DNA of 64,000 bases, taken from a virus. Below the pieces are notes generated by a model that had not been told where the DNA came from, did not search any database, and was given only the letters and a program-made list of their open reading frames with translations. Of the stretch, positions 30,795 through 53,773 are shown piece after piece. The stretch spans positions 1 to 64,000 of the IMG/VR virus record IMGVR_UViG_3300031857_000028, one strand, 5' to 3'. A program made the position numbers and the translations under genes. The stretch's first letter is position 1; every line of letters starts with the position of its first letter.

Positions 30795-31652
30795 CTAAGA
30801 AATTGCTCTACCTTTTAACGTTTCCCAATCACGTTCTGGACGGTCTACAATAACATTTCTATTCCATGCTGCACGTAAAAGTGGGGTCTGTACGTCTTTT
30901 GTTTTTGCATAGTTAATTAATGCCGAAATATCTTTCGGGAAACACGTGCCACCAAATCCTCGGTGGCCATCGGGACCTGGAACTTTCCAGTGACTCTTAC
31001 CCAAACGAGCATCCTGGACTAACAACGATTGTAGAGTTTCCCATTCAACTCCTGCGGCTGTTGCAATATCGTACAGTTCATTTGCAAACGACACCTTCAC
31101 TGCAAGAAATGTGTTTGCAGTGTACTTCAGTAGTTCAGCTGTAGTTGCTGTAGTGATTTGTACGAATCGTACAGAGTTAATTACCCGTACTTGATTCATT
31201 AATACTGCTTCAGCAATATCATGAGGTGTATTGTCAGACTTCCCCATGACAAGCACATCTTGATTTAAATAATCATCCAAATAGTTTGCTTCTGTCAAAA
31301 ATTCTGGATTGAATAGAATATAATGATTTGGATATCGTTCCTGTAACCGCTCGGTGGTACCAGGCGGAACTGTGGACTTAATGATAATTACCTTCTGCGA
31401 ATCCGTCATACAAAGGTCATGAACCACCCGTTCTACTATAGACGTATCACATTCACCAGAACTATTCATCGGTGTTGGTACTGCAACATAAATTAGATTT
31501 GCGTTCGTTAAAAACTCCTCAAACGAGGAGCATGTTGGATTTTTACTTACATCGACATCGAATGTGTGTACATGATGTCCTTTTAGTTGGTATGCATTTA
31601 AAACTGCGCCACCAACAAATCCTAATCCAATAATTCCAACTTCAAAGTTCAT
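30795..31652 (-). CDS. ugd: Short UDP-glucose/GDP-mannose dehydrogenase family protein
   Basis: GLGFVG, VPTP, IKSTVPPGTT, NPEFL, GFGGTCFPKD. Confidence 0.85.
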   Translation of the reverse strand: MNFEVGIIGLGFVGGAVLNAYQLKGHHVHTFDVDVSKNPTCSSFEEFLTNANLIYVAVPTPMNSSGECDTSIVERVVHDLCMTDSQKVIIIKSTVPPGTTERLQERYPNHYILFNPEFLTEANYLDDYLNQDVLVMGKSDNTPHDIAEAVLMNQVRVINSVRFVQITTATTAELLKYTANTFLAVKVSFANELYDIATAAGVEWETLQSLLVQDARLGKSHWKVPGPDGHRGFGGTCFPKDISALINYAKTKDVQTPLLRAAWNRNVIVDRPERDWETLKGRAIS

Positions 31653-32936: not shown

Positions 32937-32965
32937 AATATAAACAGAACAAGGTATCTTGTCAA
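32937..32965 (-). promoter_or_regulatory. Sigma70-like promoter (polA-like/ugd)
   Basis: TTGACA-N17-TATATT. Confidence 0.7.
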
Positions 32966-33795
32966 GATTCAAATTGTGAGTAATTCAATTTTGCTCGTAA
33001 GGTAAATGCAACAGAAGTATACGATGTGGATGCATTAACCGAAACCGTGCCGCCACCAGAAATTGAACCGGTAACTGCGTTTGAATCATGTATGGCGTAC
33101 AATCGGGAGTTCGGGGTGGCAAGACTTCCAGAATACCCAATCAATCTATTAACAAATCCGCCACGTGGCACTTCTGCGGGCGTTAGTGAATTTACTACAT
33201 TTGTTGCACGTTGTAATATCATTATCCAATGGTTTCTGTTATCTGTAAAATCTGTTGGAGACGTGGCCCCAAATTGCATCGTTGAACAATTATTACACGA
33301 CACTGAACCACCTATGTTAATATTGTCCACATTTCTATATACCACGACCGCATTATTTATAGGTGGTCTAGCTGCAAATGATGGAAACGTTTCTGCACTT
33401 GATGATGCAATCTTGGTTGCGAAAATTGTAGAGGGACTTGATGTAGAAGATACCACTACCCAACCGGTTCCCGCCGATAATAATGGAGCTGACGATGCCG
33501 TGGTTTCACCATATAAAATAATAAAATCACCGGTTTGATGGCTTGGAAACGTGGGTGAACCGGATGGATTATGTGCACTACCGATAAACTGTATGTTATA
33601 CGATGGTACTGTGGTGAATTGTCCATTATTATCTAACGTTGACCCTGTAGACCCGCTGGGTCCAACAAATCCCGTTATGAAATCTGCTAATGATGCAGTT
33701 TGTGTAGAAATAACACTTGCAGTTAGTGCATAACTTGCAGTTAGTGCATGTGAACTACTAAACGGTATGCCATACGGAAAAGATTTTATTGTCAT
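32962..33795 (-). CDS. Putative virion fibre/decoration protein
   Basis: FPYGIPFSSS start, TASYA repeats, GPSGS, beta-rich C-domain. Confidence 0.55.
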   Translation of the reverse strand: MTIKSFPYGIPFSSSHALTASYALTASVISTQTASLADFITGFVGPSGSTGSTLDNNGQFTTVPSYNIQFIGSAHNPSGSPTFPSHQTGDFIILYGETTASSAPLLSAGTGWVVVSSTSSPSTIFATKIASSSAETFPSFAARPPINNAVVVYRNVDNINIGGSVSCNNCSTMQFGATSPTDFTDNRNHWIMILQRATNVVNSLTPAEVPRGGFVNRLIGYSGSLATPNSRLYAIHDSNAVTGSISGGGTVSVNASTSYTSVAFTLRAKLNYSQFES

Positions 33796-45067: not shown

Positions 45068-46951
45068 TCATTCTTCTGTATTTTCACTATCAAATTCTTC
45101 TCGGTACCCCATATTGATTCGCTTGACGAATTCCTTAAACATGGATTTGTTACGTTGCGGTGTCACTAAGGCACCGTCTACAATCACATCTGCTATATCT
45201 TGTTTTTCTTTCAAGATATCCCGCATATATTCGTCAATCGTTCCTTCACATATCATATAATATGCTTGGACTTGCGATTTCTGTCCAATACGATGCGTAC
45301 GGTCTTCTGCTTGTTCATGTTCTGCTGGTAACCATCCCATGTCGATAAATACTACCGTATCCATCACGTGCTGTAATCCGTCAATACCCATACCTGCCGC
45401 ACGTAAACTGAACAGTCCAACTTTAGCCTGTTTACTCGTTAGTCTATCAATACTTTGTTGGCGGTCGTTTCTACCCATTTCGCCGGTCAATAGCGCCGCT
45501 TTATCCCCATAGTGTTGTAATAGTGCTTTCAACGGTTTAATATAACAACTGAAAATGAGTATCGAACGGTCATTGTCAATAAACTCATCAATCATTTCAA
45601 TCAATCGTGGTAATTTCTTTTCAATTAAAAATCCTTGGAGTTTGGGCATGTGTTGAACGGATGGTTTACCGTCCATCTTCCACTTTCCAAACATTTCACG
45701 CAGTAATTGATTATATTCCTTCTTCTCGTCTTTTGTGAGTTCCACATACAAATCGTTACGTTGTTTCTTTGGCATCTCCGTCAAGACTTGTTCTTTCTTT
45801 CTACGAATAACCAAGTCTTTGGTGCGGTCATGAAGGTCTTGAAGATTCATCGGTGCTGCACCTTTCCATCCACCATACCGTTGGGTAAAATGAAAGAAAT
45901 TATTGAATCTATCTTTATCCAGAAAGTTTAATAATGCAAACGCCTCAATTGGGCGAGACATGACAGGTGTGCCGGTGAGAAAAATGCAATATTTCGTTTT
46001 GATGCCGGGATACTTTCGTCGTTCTTTATACGAACCCAAGATAGACTTTGCACGAATTGTTTGACGGTTTTTGAGATAGGTTGCCTCGTCACACACAAGT
46101 AAATCAAATTGCTGGTCACGAAGCCACTGATGATTTTTAGACACAGCATCGTAATGGCTAATATGAAATTGATTTCCGAGTTTCCCGTCATATCCTTTTG
46201 AATCCCATATGGTACTCTCCTTTCCCGTAAATCGTTTAATTTCACGTTGCCAATTGACGACAACTGATAATGGGCACACGATAATTGTTTTTAAATTATG
46301 TAATTGTGCATAAGCAATTGCTTGCATGGTTTTTCCCAAACCGGGTGCATCGGCGATGAGACAACGCCCACCGGCTCTATCCACGAATTGTACGCCCACT
46401 TTTTGATACGGATAAGGTTCTACTTTCATACCCTTGATTTCAAAATCCGTATCGTCTTTCTGACGAATTTCGTCTAAGTGTTCTCGACGTTCAGTGAGTT
46501 TATTTAATAATTTAATTGCTTGGTCGGAGAACGTTGCTGTCGGGAATATTTTCTGTATTTTTGGTAAGTGAACTGCCGGAAACTCCCAATACTTTTCGTC
46601 ACCGTTCCACTTTCGTCCATCAATTTCATACTTAAACTGTTCCAATAATAGTTTATTATACGGCATATTAATATATGCAGTTTTACTATCTTTTAAGGAT
46701 ATTTCTATTGGACCAGTTTTTTCTTCTTGTTGTACTTGTGGGGTGTGGGATAATTTTGTACGAGGTAAGGATAAATCTGATACATCATCGTCGGTTAATG
46801 CTCGTTTAGCAGCTTCTACCCATGCAGGTGGGATACCTACCGTTGTACTCATCCATTGGAGGTATTGTGGGGCAATGCGTCGAACACTCCCCAACGTATG
46901 CCCCTTATACTTTCCCCACGTAAAAATTACTGCATCTAACGACGGATGCAT
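45068..46951 (-). CDS. SNF2-family helicase
   Basis: ADAPGLGKT, CDEA, LTGTP, QAEDRTHRIGQ; N-terminal WGKYKG motif. Confidence 0.9.
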   Translation of the reverse strand: MHPSLDAVIFTWGKYKGHTLGSVRRIAPQYLQWMSTTVGIPPAWVEAAKRALTDDDVSDLSLPRTKLSHTPQVQQEEKTGPIEISLKDSKTAYINMPYNKLLLEQFKYEIDGRKWNGDEKYWEFPAVHLPKIQKIFPTATFSDQAIKLLNKLTERREHLDEIRQKDDTDFEIKGMKVEPYPYQKVGVQFVDRAGGRCLIADAPGLGKTMQAIAYAQLHNLKTIIVCPLSVVVNWQREIKRFTGKESTIWDSKGYDGKLGNQFHISHYDAVSKNHQWLRDQQFDLLVCDEATYLKNRQTIRAKSILGSYKERRKYPGIKTKYCIFLTGTPVMSRPIEAFALLNFLDKDRFNNFFHFTQRYGGWKGAAPMNLQDLHDRTKDLVIRRKKEQVLTEMPKKQRNDLYVELTKDEKKEYNQLLREMFGKWKMDGKPSVQHMPKLQGFLIEKKLPRLIEMIDEFIDNDRSILIFSCYIKPLKALLQHYGDKAALLTGEMGRNDRQQSIDRLTSKQAKVGLFSLRAAGMGIDGLQHVMDTVVFIDMGWLPAEHEQAEDRTHRIGQKSQVQAYYMICEGTIDEYMRDILKEKQDIADVIVDGALVTPQRNKSMFKEFVKRINMGYREEFDSENTEE

Positions 46952-47217
46952 TATTTCTGTCCTTCGTCTCCCACCGCAAACCCATCGGGGTCTGTAACTG
47001 CGGTTGGTTCTGATTGGTCGATACGAACGTATACCATGTTATCCATATCTAACCGCCACCCGTTTCGTGGATCTATTTGCAATATTTGCATCAGTTGTAT
47101 ATTAGCTTGTTGTACTTCTTCCATCAATCGTGATTGATATGATTTTAATAAAGCGTTGTTTGCTTTTATTAAATTTTGTAGTGCTATTGGTACTTCCATA
47201 GTAACTTGATTACTCAT
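46951..47217 (-). CDS. Hypothetical protein
   Basis: GAGG RBS; abuts the helicase start. Confidence 0.65.
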   Translation of the reverse strand: MSNQVTMEVPIALQNLIKANNALLKSYQSRLMEEVQQANIQLMQILQIDPRNGWRLDMDNMVYVRIDQSEPTAVTDPDGFAVGDEGQK

Positions 47218-47234
47218 TATTCACCTCTATAAAT

Positions 47235-48053
47235 TTATAGGAAAATACTAAAATACTCTCTCCACCCACATTTAATTAAATTATACATATGTTTATTTCG
47301 TGTATAAGAAATATCGAAGATTTTTTCATCACTTCCGATATATCCATGTTGAATAGATTCATCTACCGTATCACAAAATTCTTTAGTTAAGAAATCTATT
47401 AAATGCGAAGGAACTATAAATGCTGTTCCTTGAATGTTTCTTATTTGAGACAACGAGTGAAATCTTTTATCTGATACATCAAACGATTCGTTGTGACTGA
47501 AGAATGTGATTTTGTTTAGATCTAAATCATTTATTTTTTGTATATTCGGCCAGGTAATTCCAGAATAATTCTCGATAGCTTCTCGTAATCCTCCTGCATC
47601 GGCCCAAATAACCAGTTCATTGTCAAAATATTTATTCTCAATACAGTCTCGTATCCAAAATATTTTATTGAACATTATAACATTATACAACGGCTTACTC
47701 ATTTCAGGTACGTCTGGAAAGCTGAGTTTGCTTATAAATGATTCGGAACTCATTAATGTTTCCAATTTTTGATTGTACATTTTATACGCGGGAAGCTCTT
47801 CCAATTCCTGCGTGATAATAATAGTATCGATTAAAGTTGGATCATACTTTTTTCTAATAGTTTCTATCCTATCTTTGAATTTCAACTGCGTGTAAATAAC
47901 CAATTTAGTATGCAACGATAATGTTTTTTCCATCCAATGAATGTATCCATCATATGACTGACGAAACTGTTCCCATGTATCTCTTCCGATATCATATAAT
48001 GCAGTAACTACTGTAGTATTCTTTATAAGTGGGTGTGCTAAATCCATTGCCAT
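47235..48053 (-). CDS. HtrL/WlaTC-like glycosyltransferase
   Basis: TVVTALYDIGR, Y..IMFNK, WADAG, SDEKI. Confidence 0.75.
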   Translation of the reverse strand: MAMDLAHPLIKNTTVVTALYDIGRDTWEQFRQSYDGYIHWMEKTLSLHTKLVIYTQLKFKDRIETIRKKYDPTLIDTIIITQELEELPAYKMYNQKLETLMSSESFISKLSFPDVPEMSKPLYNVIMFNKIFWIRDCIENKYFDNELVIWADAGGLREAIENYSGITWPNIQKINDLDLNKITFFSHNESFDVSDKRFHSLSQIRNIQGTAFIVPSHLIDFLTKEFCDTVDESIQHGYIGSDEKIFDISYTRNKHMYNLIKCGWREYFSIFL

Positions 48054-48793
48054 TTCACCTGTATGTTTTTGTGTTTAATTTCAACTTTGTCCGTATCAAA
48101 AAATTGCGATGTATTATCTGAATTAATTAATGTTGCTAATTTCATTTCATATTTGTTTAGTATGGTTGGTACAAATCCCTCGGAATATCCATAAATCCCT
48201 TCTCTATGAACTTTCAATAGAATTTCCATTGCACGTTTAGAAAACCTAACAATCGGAAAAAATGAACCAAATAATTCAGTAACATCATTTGGTATGATAT
48301 CACCATCACCTGGAAATCTATAAAACCACTGTTCATTTGAATATGTATTGTGGTCTATGTGGGGAATCGTAGGCTGTGATGATACGTCTTTGTGTTTAAA
48401 TATAAAATACGAAATAAAATCACTATTATCGGTATCAACATTAGCAAAAAATGCATTCCAATCACCTACACTTACATCATCATCAAAAAACCAATAATAG
48501 TCATAATTAGGATGTGTTAAATAATAATTCAACATTCTGAAATGTGCATAGAACCAAATAATATTTCGATTGCCGATGCTATTCCAAAAATGCTTCGTAC
48601 TCACTTGACGGTCGAAATTAAGATTTTTTCTAACATCCGATTCAGTATACGTAAAACCAACGTCAAAGGTACTATCTCTTGTCACATCCGCTATAACTGT
48701 TAGATGTTTGTCAGTTTTTCTAAACTCATCCCAGTTTGCCTCAAAATGTGGATACATATCCGGTGTTGTACAAACGCAGTATGCACTATTCAT
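48038..48793 (-). CDS. Putative GT-A glycosyltransferase
   Basis: YDYYWFFDDDV DxD motif; FFPIVRFS, EGFVPT. Confidence 0.6.
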   Translation of the reverse strand: MNSAYCVCTTPDMYPHFEANWDEFRKTDKHLTVIADVTRDSTFDVGFTYTESDVRKNLNFDRQVSTKHFWNSIGNRNIIWFYAHFRMLNYYLTHPNYDYYWFFDDDVSVGDWNAFFANVDTDNSDFISYFIFKHKDVSSQPTIPHIDHNTYSNEQWFYRFPGDGDIIPNDVTELFGSFFPIVRFSKRAMEILLKVHREGIYGYSEGFVPTILNKYEMKLATLINSDNTSQFFDTDKVEIKHKNIQVKWQWI

Positions 48794-49604
48794 ATGAATT
48801 TATTAAAATTTTATGCCAGTGTGGAACTCTATTAAATTGATGTACAATATCATATATTTTTTCGTCCGACGTACATATTCTATCATTGAGTAATTGCGGG
48901 ATTCCATATCTTGTTTCGATTATACCTTTAAATCCCCATGCATCAAAAAAATTAGTCGGGCCTGCTGCGGCACAGTGCATTGCCCAGCCATCAGTTAAAT
49001 TAAAAATTTTAACATTTGGAATTTTTCCATTTGCTAACAATATAATTAGTGCAGCTTGGTCACGGATGTTGTGATTATTAACACCAACTTCACACAACTC
49101 ATGCATTTGTTGTAACATGTGTATTAGTTGTTCACGTTTTCCCGCCATCACGCCCGAACATATTACCTCAAACGACCGACATTTTTCCATTTCTTCTGGA
49201 TAGCATTTATTCAATACATCGGAGTTCCAAGGTTCCTCGTTGACCAGCACTCCTTCTCCGCTAACAAATATATCATATGTATGTAAATCCATTTTCAAAA
49301 ACGGATCTGCCTGAAACACTACATCGAACACATCTGTAACCATGAACAAATCTATATTACTTTGTTTTAAATAGTCAACCGTGTGCTCCAATCGTTTATT
49401 ATTAATGTACCACGTATCTTCTATTTGAACTGGATGGCACGCTATATTCAATTCCTCACACACCTTGATATCATCTTCATTAGTATTTACTGCTAGTAAT
49501 ATAACATCGCCATCGGAAAATTTTCTAAAACTTTCTGCCCAAATTTTAATTTTTGCTTTGTTCTGTACTATATTGTTTGATGTTCCTATTAATGCTTTTT
49601 TCAT
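48786..49604 (-). CDS. Putative GT-A glycosyltransferase
   Basis: TDVFDVVFQADPF, ICSGVMAG, DQAAL, VHQFNR. Confidence 0.65.
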   Translation of the reverse strand: MKKALIGTSNNIVQNKAKIKIWAESFRKFSDGDVILLAVNTNEDDIKVCEELNIACHPVQIEDTWYINNKRLEHTVDYLKQSNIDLFMVTDVFDVVFQADPFLKMDLHTYDIFVSGEGVLVNEEPWNSDVLNKCYPEEMEKCRSFEVICSGVMAGKREQLIHMLQQMHELCEVGVNNHNIRDQAALIILLANGKIPNVKIFNLTDGWAMHCAAAGPTNFFDAWGFKGIIETRYGIPQLLNDRICTSDEKIYDIVHQFNRVPHWHKILINSYE

Positions 49605-49605
49605 A

Positions 49606-50175
49606 TCAACAAGTTCCCGTACCCACAACTAACGTTTCATTAAATCCAAGTATCGTGGGCCACAGATATTCAATCAAGTAGTTAATTTGACTCTTCACTT
49701 CCAATGGAATTGATTTTTTTATTTTTTCATACGACTCTTTACTTCGTTGTAAAATTAATTTTTTAGAAACAATGCATTGTGCCCCACTTATAAATTTTAT
49801 GGGTAGATTATATTCAATGTGTACGTTCTCTGCATACTGCACAGTTTCTTTAACGATAGAATCAACATCTCTGATATACGAGATTCCCAATGGATAAAAT
49901 GACTGAGTTGTGTCAAAATTATTAACATTGTTTATAAAATTTGGACAATGCGTAAACGGGTCGTCTTGACTGAAACATACGAAATCCGGTAAATTATCGT
50001 AATTGTCTATGATGTATGTTAAATATGCGATTGCATCATATCCAACATTAGGTAAATTTTTTTCATATAAATTATTTTTGTCCGGATTTTTGTTATATAC
50101 CACAACGGGATACTTTATTTGTTTAATCCAATCCAAATTTTCTTGAAAATGACAAACAACAACGGTTAGGTTCAT
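49606..50175 (-). CDS. DUF3431-family protein
   Basis: ENLDW, LPNVG, YLTYIIDNYDNLPD, QDDPFTH. Confidence 0.75.
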   Translation of the reverse strand: MNLTVVVCHFQENLDWIKQIKYPVVVYNKNPDKNNLYEKNLPNVGYDAIAYLTYIIDNYDNLPDFVCFSQDDPFTHCPNFINNVNNFDTTQSFYPLGISYIRDVDSIVKETVQYAENVHIEYNLPIKFISGAQCIVSKKLILQRSKESYEKIKKSIPLEVKSQINYLIEYLWPTILGFNETLVVGTGTC

Positions 50176-51437
50176 ATAACCACACTCCTTCTATCCAACC
50201 ACCCCTTTGTTTCTGAGTGGGGCCAGAAAATATATTTATACGGTTTTTTAACCGTATTAAATTCTCTCCAAATTTTTATATAAGGGTCATTAGTAGATTT
50301 TAACTGTTGTATCTCGTCTTTTAGTACGTCTTTTCTATACAATTCTGTACCAGTTTCATCTTCAAATGCAACAACCCATACATTATAATCATTTTCGGGA
50401 ACTTGGTCAAGTGGTATATCTAGACAATATTTAAATATTGATACCCAATTTTTTTCATATTGTTCTTCCGACAAATAGATAGGATTTGGTGGAAGATTAT
50501 TTTCAATTGTGTATTGCTGAACTGCTCTCTTCTTAAAGTTTATTCCCGCATATCGTTCATACTGCTGTAATGTTCTTTTTGTTCCGAACCCGTATATCCC
50601 AAAATCAATATCTTGAGCTTCACCATCCATACCAAATAATTTTCTATTTCTTAGATGTGATTTTGAATTTTTTTCCCACCACGTTTTGTCGTCATCCCAC
50701 TGCTTAGTTCTATTCTTTCTAGTGTATTCATGCCAAGCTACAATTTTATGCGGATGAAATATATCATATCCCCACGTATATGCTCGTACCGCAATTGAAA
50801 TTTCTTCGCCGTGAAAATAGTAATTAGGGTCGTGAGGAACTTCTTTACAAAATTGCCCCAACGTGAAGGCAAAATGTGCCGAATAAAATCTCCCAGGTAT
50901 AGGAGATTGTAAATTTTTATAATTGTCAATTCCGGCGGGTATAAAAAATATTGCACCTTCTGGAATGAATCTATCAAAATTCATTTTCCAGGGAATCTGT
51001 ACCCGACCGTCTGGGTCGTTTTCTGGGTCGTATGATGGGATGTAACTTGTCAGTAACGGTTTTTTATATCCATCGTTTTGCAATTGCTCAATCATGTTAA
51101 TACATTCTACGTCCCAATTTTGTACAAATCTATGATGAGAATCTAATTGAAGGGTATATTTTTCATCATTATATAGTTGCTGTATTTTATTTCGTGCCCA
51201 GCACGCACCATTCGATTCTTTATAGGGAATATCTATTATACTAAATCTAGAATCTTCTTTAAATTCATCTAAATTATCCCACACATCTTCTTCAGAATGT
51301 TGCCACGCAATTCCAAATCGTAAATGTTCTGGATGTTTTGCCTTAACTATACAATCTCGTATAGTTGGAACTAACTCAGGGTCACGGTACGATGCAATTT
51401 GTACAAATATAGTATTTTTCATAAACCTTTCCTTCAT
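50172..51437 (-). CDS. GT60-family polypeptide alpha-GlcNAc transferase-like
   Basis: IFVQIASYRDPE, GACWAR, LQLDSHHRF..NWD, FHGEEI, AYTWGYD. Confidence 0.82.
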   Translation of the reverse strand: MKERFMKNTIFVQIASYRDPELVPTIRDCIVKAKHPEHLRFGIAWQHSEEDVWDNLDEFKEDSRFSIIDIPYKESNGACWARNKIQQLYNDEKYTLQLDSHHRFVQNWDVECINMIEQLQNDGYKKPLLTSYIPSYDPENDPDGRVQIPWKMNFDRFIPEGAIFFIPAGIDNYKNLQSPIPGRFYSAHFAFTLGQFCKEVPHDPNYYFHGEEISIAVRAYTWGYDIFHPHKIVAWHEYTRKNRTKQWDDDKTWWEKNSKSHLRNRKLFGMDGEAQDIDFGIYGFGTKRTLQQYERYAGINFKKRAVQQYTIENNLPPNPIYLSEEQYEKNWVSIFKYCLDIPLDQVPENDYNVWVVAFEDETGTELYRKDVLKDEIQQLKSTNDPYIKIWREFNTVKKPYKYIFWPHSETKGWLDRRSVVI

Positions 51438-51456
51438 ATGTTTTATTTATTAATTA

Positions 51457-52881
51457 TTATAATACACAGACATTCTCTAAACAAGTTAAGCCATTACAAC
51501 ATGATAATGATAAACAACTTTGGCCCTGATCTGCACATGGTTCTGGTGTAGCCGTTGGGTCAGGTACTGGTGTCGCTGTTGGTTCTGGTACTGGTGTCGC
51601 TGTTGGGTCTGGTACTGGTGTCGCTGTTGGTTCTGGTCCCGGTGTAGCCGTTGGGTCCGGTACTGGTGTCGCTGTTGGGTCTGGTACTGGTGTCGCTGTT
51701 GGTGCCGGTGGCCCACCACCCTGACACGTACTGAGGTTACCATCCACTTCAACGCAATCCAATCCATCACAGCAAGTTCCTACTGGAGAGCCACTGACTA
51801 TACATGCATTACCTGACGTAATACACGTTGGTGTAGCGGTCGGTGCTGCTGGTGTAGCAGTTGGTGCTGGTGTAGCAGTTGGTGCCGGTGGTCCACCACC
51901 CTGACACGTACTGAGGTTACCATCTACCTCGGTACACGTTAATCCATCACAGCAAGTTCCTACTGGAGAACCGCTGACTATACATGCGTTACCTGACGTA
52001 ATACACGTTGGTGTAGCAGTTGGTTGTACTGGTGTTGGTGTTGGTGACGGCGGTGCAGCAGTTTGACACGTACTGAGGTTACCATCTACCTCGGTACACG
52101 TTAATCCATCACAGCAAGTTCCTACTGGAGAACCGCTAATTACACACGCATTACCTTCCGTAATACACGACGGCGTAGCCGTTGGTGTTGGTGTAGCCGT
52201 AGGTGGTAATGGTGTCGGTGTAGCAGTTGGTTCTACTGGTTCTGGTGTAGCCGTTGGTGTTGGTGTAGCCGTTGGTGTTGGTGTAGCAGTTGGTGTCGGT
52301 GTAGCAGTTGGTTCTACTGGTCCTGGTGTAGCAGTTGGTGTAGCGGTTGGTTGTACTGGTGTTGGCGTAGCCGTTGGTGGTACTGGTGTAGCCGTAGGTA
52401 CTGGGGTGGCGGTTGGTTGTACTGGTGTTGGCGTAGCCGTTGGTGGTACTGGTGTTGGCGTAGGTGCTGGTGTGGCAGTTGGTGGTACTGGTGTAGCCGT
52501 AGGTACTGGCGTGGCTGTTGGTGGCACTGGTGTAGCAGTTGGTGTCGGTGTAGCAGTCGGTGTAGCGGTTGGTGTTGCTGTAGGTGTTGCTGTAGGTGTT
52601 GGGGTTGGGGTTGGTGTGGCACTTGTTGTTGGTGTAGGTGTTGGTATTGGGGAGTGACACAGAAAATAATTGCGGGGACGATAGGCAATTAAACTGTAAT
52701 TCACTTCCGTGTATCCAGCAGGACATCCTGCTGCAGCCGACCCAGACGGACCTCTATTTCCGAAACTACCCGTAAGTGCATATAAAATACTATATCCAGG
52801 ACTGTTAACGGTAGTAACAATACTGGCAGAAATTGCATATGAACTGGATGCTGGGATAGCAAACGGAAAAAATACGGACAT
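51457..52881 (-). CDS. Pro/Thr-rich mucin-like protein with cystine-knot-like repeats
   Basis: Long PTATP tracts; three CIT.GNAC...GTCCDGL.C...C units and a terminal [24 protein letters not shown]. Confidence 0.75.
51721..52172. repeat. Three near-identical Cys-rich DNA repeats
   Basis: Units at about 51721-51830, 51901-52010 and 52064-52172. Confidence 0.8.
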
Positions 52882-52918: not shown

Positions 52919-53773
52919 TTAAGTTTCTAACGAAAATACGTGAACCGATGCGGTTACACTTTGAGAAGAACCTACTGATGCAAGATTCTCTATCATATAG
53001 TAAATTTCATGTTTTCCCGCAAGTGTGGAAAAACTATTCTTAATAATATTCAAGTCCGTTCCCATATTTTGTATATTTGCTCCAATAATTTTTGGTACAA
53101 AATAGGTAGTCTCACTTCCCGTTAAAATTGCATCTAACAGTAACGTGTTTGTTTGTGTTTCCGATGCATACGGTCTATTTTTTTCGGTAGTATTATTTAA
53201 GATTGGTTGTGTATTATAAAATCGTACTCGTATGGGTGCCGAAGTGTTACTAACTGATGCACTTACAAATAAGTAGGTTCGTGGAATATCAGCATTCGTA
53301 ACTGAACCACTTGCTAATTGTCCTGGTGACAGTGATACTTGTATTGATGGTAATTCTACACGACTATCTGTACTAATTACTGAATCTTCTAATAAGTATC
53401 TACCAAATGTCAATCTAGGTACTGATGGTGCGTTATCTATTTTATAATAGGTTAATTTTGTTGATGGTGTACCAACCACACCATATAGTGCGGGGTCAAT
53501 CGTATATGTGCCCGCAGCCATCGTAAAATCACCTATTAATGAAATCGATGCAGGAATATTTGTATCACCAAATGCACGTGACTGCTCTGTCAAATTATTT
53601 AGACTATCTAAATTGTCATACAAACGCAGTCTACATGACGTATTTGACTGAATTGCATATAACACGTATGCAGAACCTAAATCAACAGATCCTGATCCTG
53701 CTACGTCTGTTAATATTTCGATATTATCCCGTGTTAAACTTGCACCGGCTTGTAAATATTCTTTTAATCCCAT
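52919..53773 (-). CDS. Putative structural protein with internal duplication
   Basis: RLRLYDN..LNNLTE.SR and RVRFYNT..LNNTTE.NR halves. Confidence 0.6.
   Translation of the reverse strand: MGLKEYLQAGASLTRDNIEILTDVAGSGSVDLGSAYVLYAIQSNTSCRLRLYDNLDSLNNLTEQSRAFGDTNIPASISLIGDFTMAAGTYTIDPALYGVVGTPSTKLTYYKIDNAPSVPRLTFGRYLLEDSVISTDSRVELPSIQVSLSPGQLASGSVTNADIPRTYLFVSASVSNTSAPIRVRFYNTQPILNNTTEKNRPYASETQTNTLLLDAILTGSETTYFVPKIIGANIQNMGTDLNIIKNSFSTLAGKHEIYYMIENLASVGSSQSVTASVHVFSLET

Follow-up and report, generated by a model that had tools for sequence, protein, structure and literature searches.

We analyzed a window of 64 kb, the first part of the 145.7-kb IMG/VR contig IMGVR_UViG_3300031857_000028 (~76% complete according to CheckV), in which positions 47235-52881 on the minus strand are filled by six closely spaced genes encoding a Pro/Thr-rich protein (PT474) and the proteins that we call GT60, DUF3431, GT280, GT251, and HtrL. 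We think it reasonably probable that this cassette carries out cytoplasmic mucin-type O-glycosylation of the phage's Pro/Thr-tract proteins, PT474 included, with GT60 as the initiator and a swappable set of extension enzymes. An earlier note on this DNA had proposed that an initiating transferase is encoded alongside its extension enzymes and a mucin-like substrate. Genomic linkage and phyletic association in related phages bear out the joint encoding, and the transfer of sugar to Thr would follow from what the GT60 family does elsewhere. Our account below of the acceptor residue, donor sugar, order of extension, attachment to the virion, and biological role is inferred.

PT474 and the GT60 enzyme

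The earlier note had described five contiguous glycosyltransferase-like genes that start about 20 nt after the Pro/Thr protein. This arrangement held: all six open reading frames (ORFs) lie on the minus strand, the spacing between PT474 and GT60 measures 19 nt, and the remaining four junctions abut or overlap.

The GT60 gene (50172-51437, minus strand) encodes a GT60-family glycosyltransferase, the proposed initiating polypeptide alpha-GlcNAc transferase. Its identity was confirmed by hidden Markov model (HMM) search against PF11397 (E 8.2e-75; 252.9 bits against a cut-off of 21), with profile positions 1-44 and 97-351 of 352 covered, and the protein also matched phrog_24687 (E 2e-180). GT60 is soluble, extends ~120 aa past the Pfam domain at its C terminus, and contains the sequence LDSHH (DxH) at aa 99-103, which, judging by position alone, may be equivalent to the metal-binding DxH of GT-A enzymes such as the related GT27 family. 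More than 7600 homologues were found in metagenomes, many of them ~68% identical and located on contigs of 100-300 kb, while among cultured phages a homologue was present only in the jumbo phages XacN1, Xoo-sp13, CM1, and RAS14.

In protists, the GT60 family starts mucin-type O-glycosylation with GlcNAc on Ser/Thr-rich domains (PMC8724618). The characterized activities are all on polypeptides, namely mucin-repeat Thr in Dictyostelium and T. cruzi and the hydroxyproline (Hyp) of Skp1, and the characterized enzymes favor Thr within Pro-rich repeats (PMC8724618). By analogy, we infer alpha-GlcNAc as the donor sugar and a linkage to Thr or Ser. We also considered a Skp1-type Hyp linkage, which is unlikely; a Thr/Ser acceptor is likelier because no prolyl 4-hydroxylase-type domain (PF13640) was found in the contig.

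PT474 (51457-52881, minus strand), the candidate acceptor, contains 105 Pro, 105 Thr, 30 Ser, and 26 Cys residues in 474 aa, and its Pro+Thr content of 44% agrees with its earlier description as a protein built largely of Pro/Thr tracts. The tracts are long and of the TPTATP type, and they are interrupted by six-cysteine modules. The protein has no membrane segment and its start does not resemble a signal peptide. The N-terminal module (aa 1-76; 52654-52881, minus strand), with the pattern MSVFFPF...SSYA..AS...C-P-x-GYTEVNY-x-LIA...RNYFLC, is 54-66% identical in five other phage contigs and probably serves as a docking module. Its first ~45 residues resemble the N terminus of a fiber-like 277-aa ORF (32962-33795, minus strand; E 0.04), which suggests a docking motif common to fiber-like proteins of the source phage; this likeness, along with the fiber-like neighbors of PT474, would be consistent with attachment of PT474 to the virion. 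The 277-aa ORF adjoins the baseplate hub/SLT gene and begins FPYGIPFSSSHALTASYALTAS, like the PT474 N terminus.

Four six-cysteine modules, all on the minus strand, were recognized in PT474 by sequence pattern. The first (52066-52167) follows C-x6-C-x9-CC-x4-C-x9-C, the second (51904-52005) and third (51724-51825) are 91% and 86% identical to it, respectively, and the terminal one (51466-51537) is shorter, with the pattern C-x6-C-x4-CC-x4-C-x4-C. The modules fit no known family with significance; they weakly resemble knottins (tachystatin A, spider toxins), but the Pfam Toxin_7 match (E 2e-4) was below cut-off and the PDB matches (E 0.15-0.9) were non-significant. Two further proteins of the same contig, beyond the window, carry comparable elements: a protein of 325 aa in which two Cys modules at the N terminus are combined with a ~120-residue Pro/Thr tract (G000:C1:125137-126114, minus strand) and, near the portal gene, an 83-aa protein with a hydrophobic N terminus, a short Pro/Thr linker, and a knottin-like module (G000:C1:86977-87228, minus strand). 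In a relative, an Erv1/ALR-type sulfhydryl oxidase gene (L115:11472-11924, minus strand) adjoins a lone GT60 gene and an ORF of 2267 aa, and its product is a possible route to cytoplasmic disulfides in Cys-rich phage modules.

Linkage and phyletic association of GT60 with Pro/Thr tracts

We examined 19 distinct GT60 loci. GT60 was the sole gene common to every cassette variant and was mostly the first. The genes after it differed and included those for carbamoyltransferase, sulfotransferases, FkbM methyltransferases, GT11, GT25, GT32, DUF5672, UDP-galactopyranose mutase, epimerases, and DUF3431, with the HtrL domain the most frequent. An HtrL domain accompanied GT60 in most related cassettes, often fused to DUF3431 or FkbM.

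Scanning for exact peptides of the PT474 N terminus gave no match; homologues were found by an alignment-based scan (four loci) and in a large protein database (one more). PT474-type proteins, which combine the N-terminal module, a Pro/Thr tract, and Cys-rich ends, are encoded in the window and in L005/L011, L018, L112, L123, and L021. Six loci reach far enough to be informative (the window, L005, L018, L112, L123, and the first cassette of contig G013), and in all six GT60 is the next or next-but-one gene after the PT474 family member, while the extension enzymes differ each time. The cassette of L005 holds a second GT60, DUF5672, GT25, FkbM, GT11, and an epimerase; that of L112 holds GT32, and that of L123 holds FkbM and UDP-galactopyranose mutase. 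L018 has an epimerase and then an O-FucT+GT60 fusion, and the first G013 cassette, with the protein PT678, is arranged in the same way, its epimerase being followed by a divergent multidomain GT60 protein. The genomic linkage between GT60 and Pro/Thr-rich genes that the earlier note had proposed to test in relatives is therefore present. In the source genome, Pro/Thr tracts occur in two or three of 154 ORFs, so that adjacency by chance would be expected in ~2% of cases per locus.

The multidomain proteins themselves are large: an HPAT + O-FucT + GT60 protein of 923 aa in G013 (L108:9621-12392, minus strand) and an O-FucT + GT60 protein of 1268 aa in L018 (L018:8199-12005, plus strand), each behind an epimerase and a Pro/Thr-rich protein. 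HPAT (the Hyp O-arabinosyltransferase family) and O-FucT, which are fused to GT60 in G013, are both named after protein O-glycosyltransferases.

Pro/Thr-tract proteins unrelated to PT474 are also encoded directly upstream of GT60 in L009, L010, and the second G013 cassette. Those of L009 and L010 consist of a ~240-aa N-terminal domain, a tract, and a proprotein-convertase P-domain, and the second G013 cassette has Pro/Thr-tract proteins of 1549 and 1534 aa. Elsewhere, such proteins are encoded within 6 kb of GT60 (L007, L013) or downstream of it (L010, with an RCC1 propeller, and G009). On the 224-kb contig of L013, Sulfotransfer_3 and Sulfotransfer_4 genes (L013:1717-2514 and L013:11301-11816, both plus strand) are located between ORFs rich in Pro/Thr and within the GT60 cassette, and carbamoyltransferases are present in other GT60 cassettes; these genes hint that the cassette glycans may be sulfated or carbamoylated.

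In the portal-related contigs G018 and G019, which are GT60-negative, the corresponding slot is bordered by the tape measure, hub, SNF2 helicase, and 88-aa genes at one end and by the 284-aa gene at the other. PT474 and the cassette are gained and lost together, because three small ORFs fill the same slot in these relatives. In the window, the flank markers lie outside the proposed system: the gene for the 284-aa protein (52919-53773, minus strand), upstream, is kept in both GT60-positive and GT60-negative relatives, and the 88-aa ORF (46951-47217, minus strand), downstream and followed by the SNF2 helicase gene, is kept in GT60-negative relatives.

To detect Pro/Thr tracts, we searched the DNA for sequences encoding TPTxTPTxTP with at most one mismatch, and control searches with the reversed pattern yielded 0-1 hits. 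Among 14 portal-related contigs of 35-99 kb, tracts were present in 3/3 GT60-positive and 2/11 GT60-negative contigs, and among complete cultured jumbo myoviruses in 3/3 GT60-positive and 0/6 GT60-negative genomes. The GT60-positive jumbo phages gave 86 (XacN1), 69 (Xoo-sp13), and 38 (CM1) hits, whereas there were none in the GT60-negative RsoM2USA, Phosso, XbC2, Vibrio 2.275.O, pEa_SNUABM_47, and 121Q (2.2 Mb in total). Over all records, 12 of the 14 GT60-positive and 2 of the 17 GT60-negative ones had tracts (pooled Fisher p 5e-5), in line with the co-occurrence across phages that the earlier note had suggested testing. One of the GT60-negative, tract-positive records (G021) is a 36-kb fragment, and an identical copy of its tract occurs in G001, which is GT60-positive.

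Evidence from cultured phages bears on this point. Purified XacN1 virions show Schiff-stained glycoprotein bands, and the authors of that study suggest the phage's two glycosyltransferases, ORF328 and ORF334, as their source (PMC5852040). We found that ORF334 is the GT60 homologue, with 51% identity. In Xoo-sp13, one gene (L111:19650-22640, plus strand; MN047793.1 positions 108649-111639) is annotated "mucin-16-like protein," and several further large ORFs with Thr/Pro tracts lie in at least four regions of the genome.

Accessory enzymes, genomic context, and competing explanations

Sequence searches against PDB chains with GT60, GT280, GT251, and HtrL returned nothing useful, and we therefore turned to predicted folds. 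The DUF3431 gene (49606-50175, minus strand; 189 aa) overlaps the GT60 stop by 4 nt, and HMM search upheld the family assignment (PF11913, E 2.6e-16, 60.4 bits against 25); many phage homologues carry this domain in fusion with HtrL domains. GT280 (48786-49604, minus strand) is a GT-A-fold glycosyltransferase-like protein with a DxxD motif and a candidate extension enzyme. Pfam gave only a weak GT_PLOD match, but its AlphaFold model (pLDDT 97.4) matched GT6 alpha-1,3-GalT, ABO transferases, and the UGGT catalytic domain in Foldseek (E 1e-10, TM ~0.57), all of them retaining GT-A enzymes, and D91 and D94 of its TDVxDV motif are invariant across 50 homologues. The mechanically called ORF takes a TTG at 49628 as its start; in homologues and in the Atlas record, translation begins from the ATG at 49604, immediately next to the DUF3431 stop.

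GT251 (48038-48793, minus strand), a second candidate extension enzyme, had no match in Pfam. Its Atlas model (pTM 0.82) is GT-A-like and resembles DUF707, DUF3405, and Branch-type beta-1,6-GlcNAc transferases (TM 0.61-0.75), with an FFDDDV motif at aa 101-106, and several of its nearest Atlas clusters come from Nucleocytoviricota. The two DxD GT-A genes of the earlier note thus correspond to GT280 and GT251, each with an acidic motif and a GT-A-like model. The product of the usual last cassette gene, HtrL (47235-48053, minus strand), matched PF09612 (E 1.2e-24; 87.8 bits, threshold 24.1), in agreement with the HtrL-like label that it had been given, and its model (pLDDT 95) is GT-A-like, nearest to XXYLT1, GT6, and LARGE1 (E 1e-6). 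It is a member of the HtrL/YibB family and not a YibB equivalent, because its match to NCBIfam TIGR02192 (E 3e-30, 105.9 bits) falls below the equivalog cut-off of 264.9. The description of five glycosyltransferase-like genes consequently stands for GT60, by profile, and for GT280, GT251, and HtrL, by GT-A-like models; for DUF3431 there is a family profile match only. The Kyte-Doolittle maximum over 19-residue segments was 1.24 across the five enzymes and none has a membrane segment, consistent with glycosylation in the cytoplasm, the site of phage protein synthesis.

We assign the source phage to the T4-like myoviruses because the contig encodes a T4-type portal, a gp32-like protein, and a T4 baseplate hub and tape measure; it is uncultured, of freshwater origin, and looks strictly lytic. 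The cassette had been placed inside the structural gene block. This is correct for the upstream side, where there are tail-fiber-like genes, but directly downstream the SNF2 helicase gene comes ahead of the baseplate hub and tape measure genes. At the nucleotide level, the region had no match among cultured phages. Scans for promoters and terminators added no information, with 34 promoter-like sites where 32 were expected.

A nucleotide-sugar dehydrogenase at 30795 had been put forward as a source of donor, a role that we reject. The gene (30795-31652, minus strand) encodes a 285-aa UDP-glucose dehydrogenase-like protein with the NAD-binding and central domains only, and the C-terminal UDP-binding domain PF03720 was not found anywhere in the contig. 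Because it is truncated, it is not a credible donor gene. It is flanked by a gp32-like gene and a minimal PolA-like gene among replication genes 17 kb from the cassette, and it is present in none of the related cassettes. The product may be a degenerate or repurposed enzyme.

Several points weigh against the proposal that the cassette glycosylates Pro/Thr tracts. The activity of the cassette is a prediction from genes and models, and the virion location of PT474 is a prediction from its sequence and neighbors. The Schiff-positive bands of XacN1 have not been assigned to named proteins or enzymes (PMC5852040). About 8 of the 19 loci lack a Pro/Thr-tract ORF within 10 kb (L006, L008, L012, L015, L113-L115, and the XacN1 group); adjacency to GT60 is frequent and not obligatory, and the substrate set is therefore probably wider than the adjacent gene. 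Pro/Thr and GT60 genes both reside in a plastic accessory region near fiber genes, which inflates co-localization, and in the Xanthomonas phages the cassette adjoins DNA polymerase, RNase H, and NUDIX genes. The six-cysteine modules would need oxidation, and a search of the contig with a sulfhydryl oxidase (Erv1/ALR) profile was empty, although the same profile matched no control genome either. Finally, the counts of tracts and GT60 are phylogenetically non-independent, coming from about two lineages, and many of the contigs are fragments; the association agrees in both lineages.

The cassette could instead glycosylate other phage proteins, such as the capsid, the sheath, or other fibers, and not Pro/Thr tracts specifically, with PT474 an unmodified neighbor. 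The mycobacteriophage glycosyltransferases described by Freeman et al. 2023, as cited in PMC12619734, modify the C termini of capsid and tail-tube subunits, and both the unattributed XacN1 bands and the cassettes that have no adjacent Pro/Thr-rich gene would suit this explanation. It is at odds with the genome-wide association of Pro/Thr tracts with GT60, with the recurrence of tract genes directly upstream, and with the preference of characterized GT60 enzymes for Thr in Pro-rich repeats (PMC8724618). We judge it unlikely, while accepting that other virion proteins may well be glycosylated in addition.

Slightly less likely again is that the cassette is a set of auxiliary genes for remodeling a host surface glycan (lipopolysaccharide [LPS] core, O-antigen, or capsule) and that adjacency to PT474 is a by-product of a variable accessory region. 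This is the customary literature reading of glycosyltransferase clusters in aquatic myoviruses (PMC12801897). HtrL/YibB takes its name from the LPS-core locus of E. coli, JGI tags many GT60 homologues "glycosyltransferase involved in cell wall biosynthesis," and ~40% of the cassettes have no Pro/Thr-rich gene nearby. Pfam searches of the cassette and its flanks, however, found no lipid-carrier priming transferase, flippase, or polymerase, the cassette encodes no membrane segment, GT60 enzymes are not known to act on lipids or polysaccharides, and the phage looks strictly lytic and T4-like. Remodeling of host glycans would also leave unexplained the 6/6 linkage of PT474 to GT60, the joint insertion or deletion of the two, and the absence of tracts from GT60-negative relatives.

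Hypermodification of phage DNA, in which the enzymes would glycosylate hydroxylated pyrimidines as a defense against restriction, is very improbable: DNA glycosylation is common in phages, the XacN1 and Xoo-sp13 cassettes have the DNA-related neighbors named above, a SNF2 helicase gene lies downstream of the window cassette, and the GT60-domain fusion of G013 gave a sub-threshold match (E 2e-4) to the TET-associated glycosyltransferase family, but both known routes to 5hmC/5hoC require a thymidylate-synthase-type enzyme or TET/JBP (PMC13326640; bioRxiv 10.1101/2023.12.21.572611), and PF00303 (thymidylate-synthase-type hydroxylase/hydroxymethylase) was not found in the ~76% complete contig or in the GT60-positive contigs G001, G003, and G004 (one of them 90% complete). 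TET/JBP (PF12851) was likewise not found in the contig, with a profile that matched no control genome either, the five window proteins had no match to TAGT/JGT or T4 alpha/beta-GT families at E 0.1, and cassettes with 5-8 sugar-tailoring enzymes (sulfo-, carbamoyl-, and methyltransferases) exceed any known DNA modification.

Proposed mechanism and comparison with known systems

For cytoplasmic O-glycosylation of Pro/Thr tracts, we propose that PT474 and the cassette genes would be transcribed together late in infection. Soluble GT60 would then move a first sugar, alpha-GlcNAc by family precedent, from a host-pool UDP-sugar to Thr (and Ser) in the PT474 tracts, and other Pro/Thr-tract proteins of the phage would probably be modified too. 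GT280, GT251, HtrL, and DUF3431 would lengthen this sugar to a short oligosaccharide, whose composition would vary between phages because the extension genes are swapped. PT474 would probably dock on the virion through its conserved N-terminal module and display small disulfide-knotted modules on a stiff, protease-resistant, glycosylated spacer. The bottle-brush stalk of the earlier note is an image and not a finding.

More tentatively, and with rather less confidence than we place in the cassette itself, we suggest that GT60-initiated mucin-type O-glycosylation could be widespread among large myoviruses of water and soil as a modular trait, in at least two unrelated lineages. These phages would make their own "mucins" as glycosylated Pro/Thr spacers in fiber, adhesin, and decoration proteins, and swappable modules for extension and for sulfo-, carbamoyl-, and methyl-transfer would give each phage its specific glycans. 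To our knowledge, documented cases of virion glycosylation come from very few phages, and GT60 enzymes are regarded as belonging to protists. If the trait is indeed widespread, it would be the first GT60 system outside eukaryotes, and a large class of phage "cell-wall/LPS" glycosyltransferase genes would be reassigned to virion glycosylation.

If our reading of the cassette is correct, it would give a function to a gene family that has thousands of copies in environmental phage contigs and is usually annotated as cell-wall/LPS or guessed to act on DNA, and the "PT-linker" proteins of large phages would become candidate glycoproteins. Such glycans could affect host recognition, resistance to proteases and grazing, adhesion, and antigenicity. 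The hypothesis can be tested in cultured phages, as XacN1, Xoo-sp13, and CM1/RAS14 have a GT60 homologue and many Pro/Thr-tract genes, and one of them has glycoprotein staining. It is also relevant to how mucin-type O-glycosylation arose, the initiating enzyme family being abundant in bacterial viruses.

The protist GT60 transferases (Dictyostelium pp-alphaGlcNAcT2 and Gnt1, and T. cruzi OGNT) belong to the same family as the window enzyme, which is soluble, like the cytoplasmic Gnt1, and the Thr/Pro-rich candidate acceptor resembles protist mucin domains. Unlike the protist systems, the one described here is phage-encoded, would act in the bacterial cytoplasm, has no Golgi anchor, and carries the C-terminal extension of ~120 aa that is phage-specific. 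It also differs from the protist Skp1 route, since a prolyl hydroxylase was not found in the contig and a Hyp linkage is unlikely.

In the serine-rich-repeat adhesins of Gram-positive bacteria, GtfA/GtfB (GT-B fold, GT4) start O-GlcNAc addition in the cytoplasm and the product leaves by accessory Sec export. Variable extension transferases are encoded at these loci with the substrate, whose stalk is long, of low complexity, and Ser/Thr-rich. The proposed phage system shares a cytoplasmic O-GlcNAc start on a low-complexity stalk and a variable extension set at the substrate locus, but it would start with a GT-A enzyme of family GT60, has no export genes, and would rely on lysis for release.

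Phage DNA glycosyltransferases (T4 alpha/beta-GT and the TET-associated GT-A enzymes) are likewise phage-encoded and soluble, and some have the GT-A fold. They belong to other families, however, and need a hydroxymethylase, hydroxylase, or TET partner, which was not found in the window contig. Giant viruses, too, carry multi-enzyme glycan machinery for their structural proteins, as in the capsid glycans of chloroviruses and the fibrils of mimivirus, but they have eukaryotic hosts, other linkages (atypical N-glycans in chloroviruses), and other enzyme sets (PMC9614988).

A parallel among phages is the glycosylation of mycobacteriophages (Freeman et al. 2023, as cited in PMC12619734), in which the phage encodes glycosyltransferases next to its structural genes and, within the host cytoplasm, they modify its own virion proteins. 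As that account has it, the mycobacteriophage enzymes are of other glycosyltransferase families and their targets are capsid and tail-tube C termini, whereas the window has long Pro/Thr tracts in separate fiber-like proteins and a variable extension and tailoring set. Our analysis suggests that the cassette combines two known kinds of system, virus-encoded virion glycosylation and GT60 mucin-type initiation, in a so far unrecognized way for phages to sugar-coat their own proteins.

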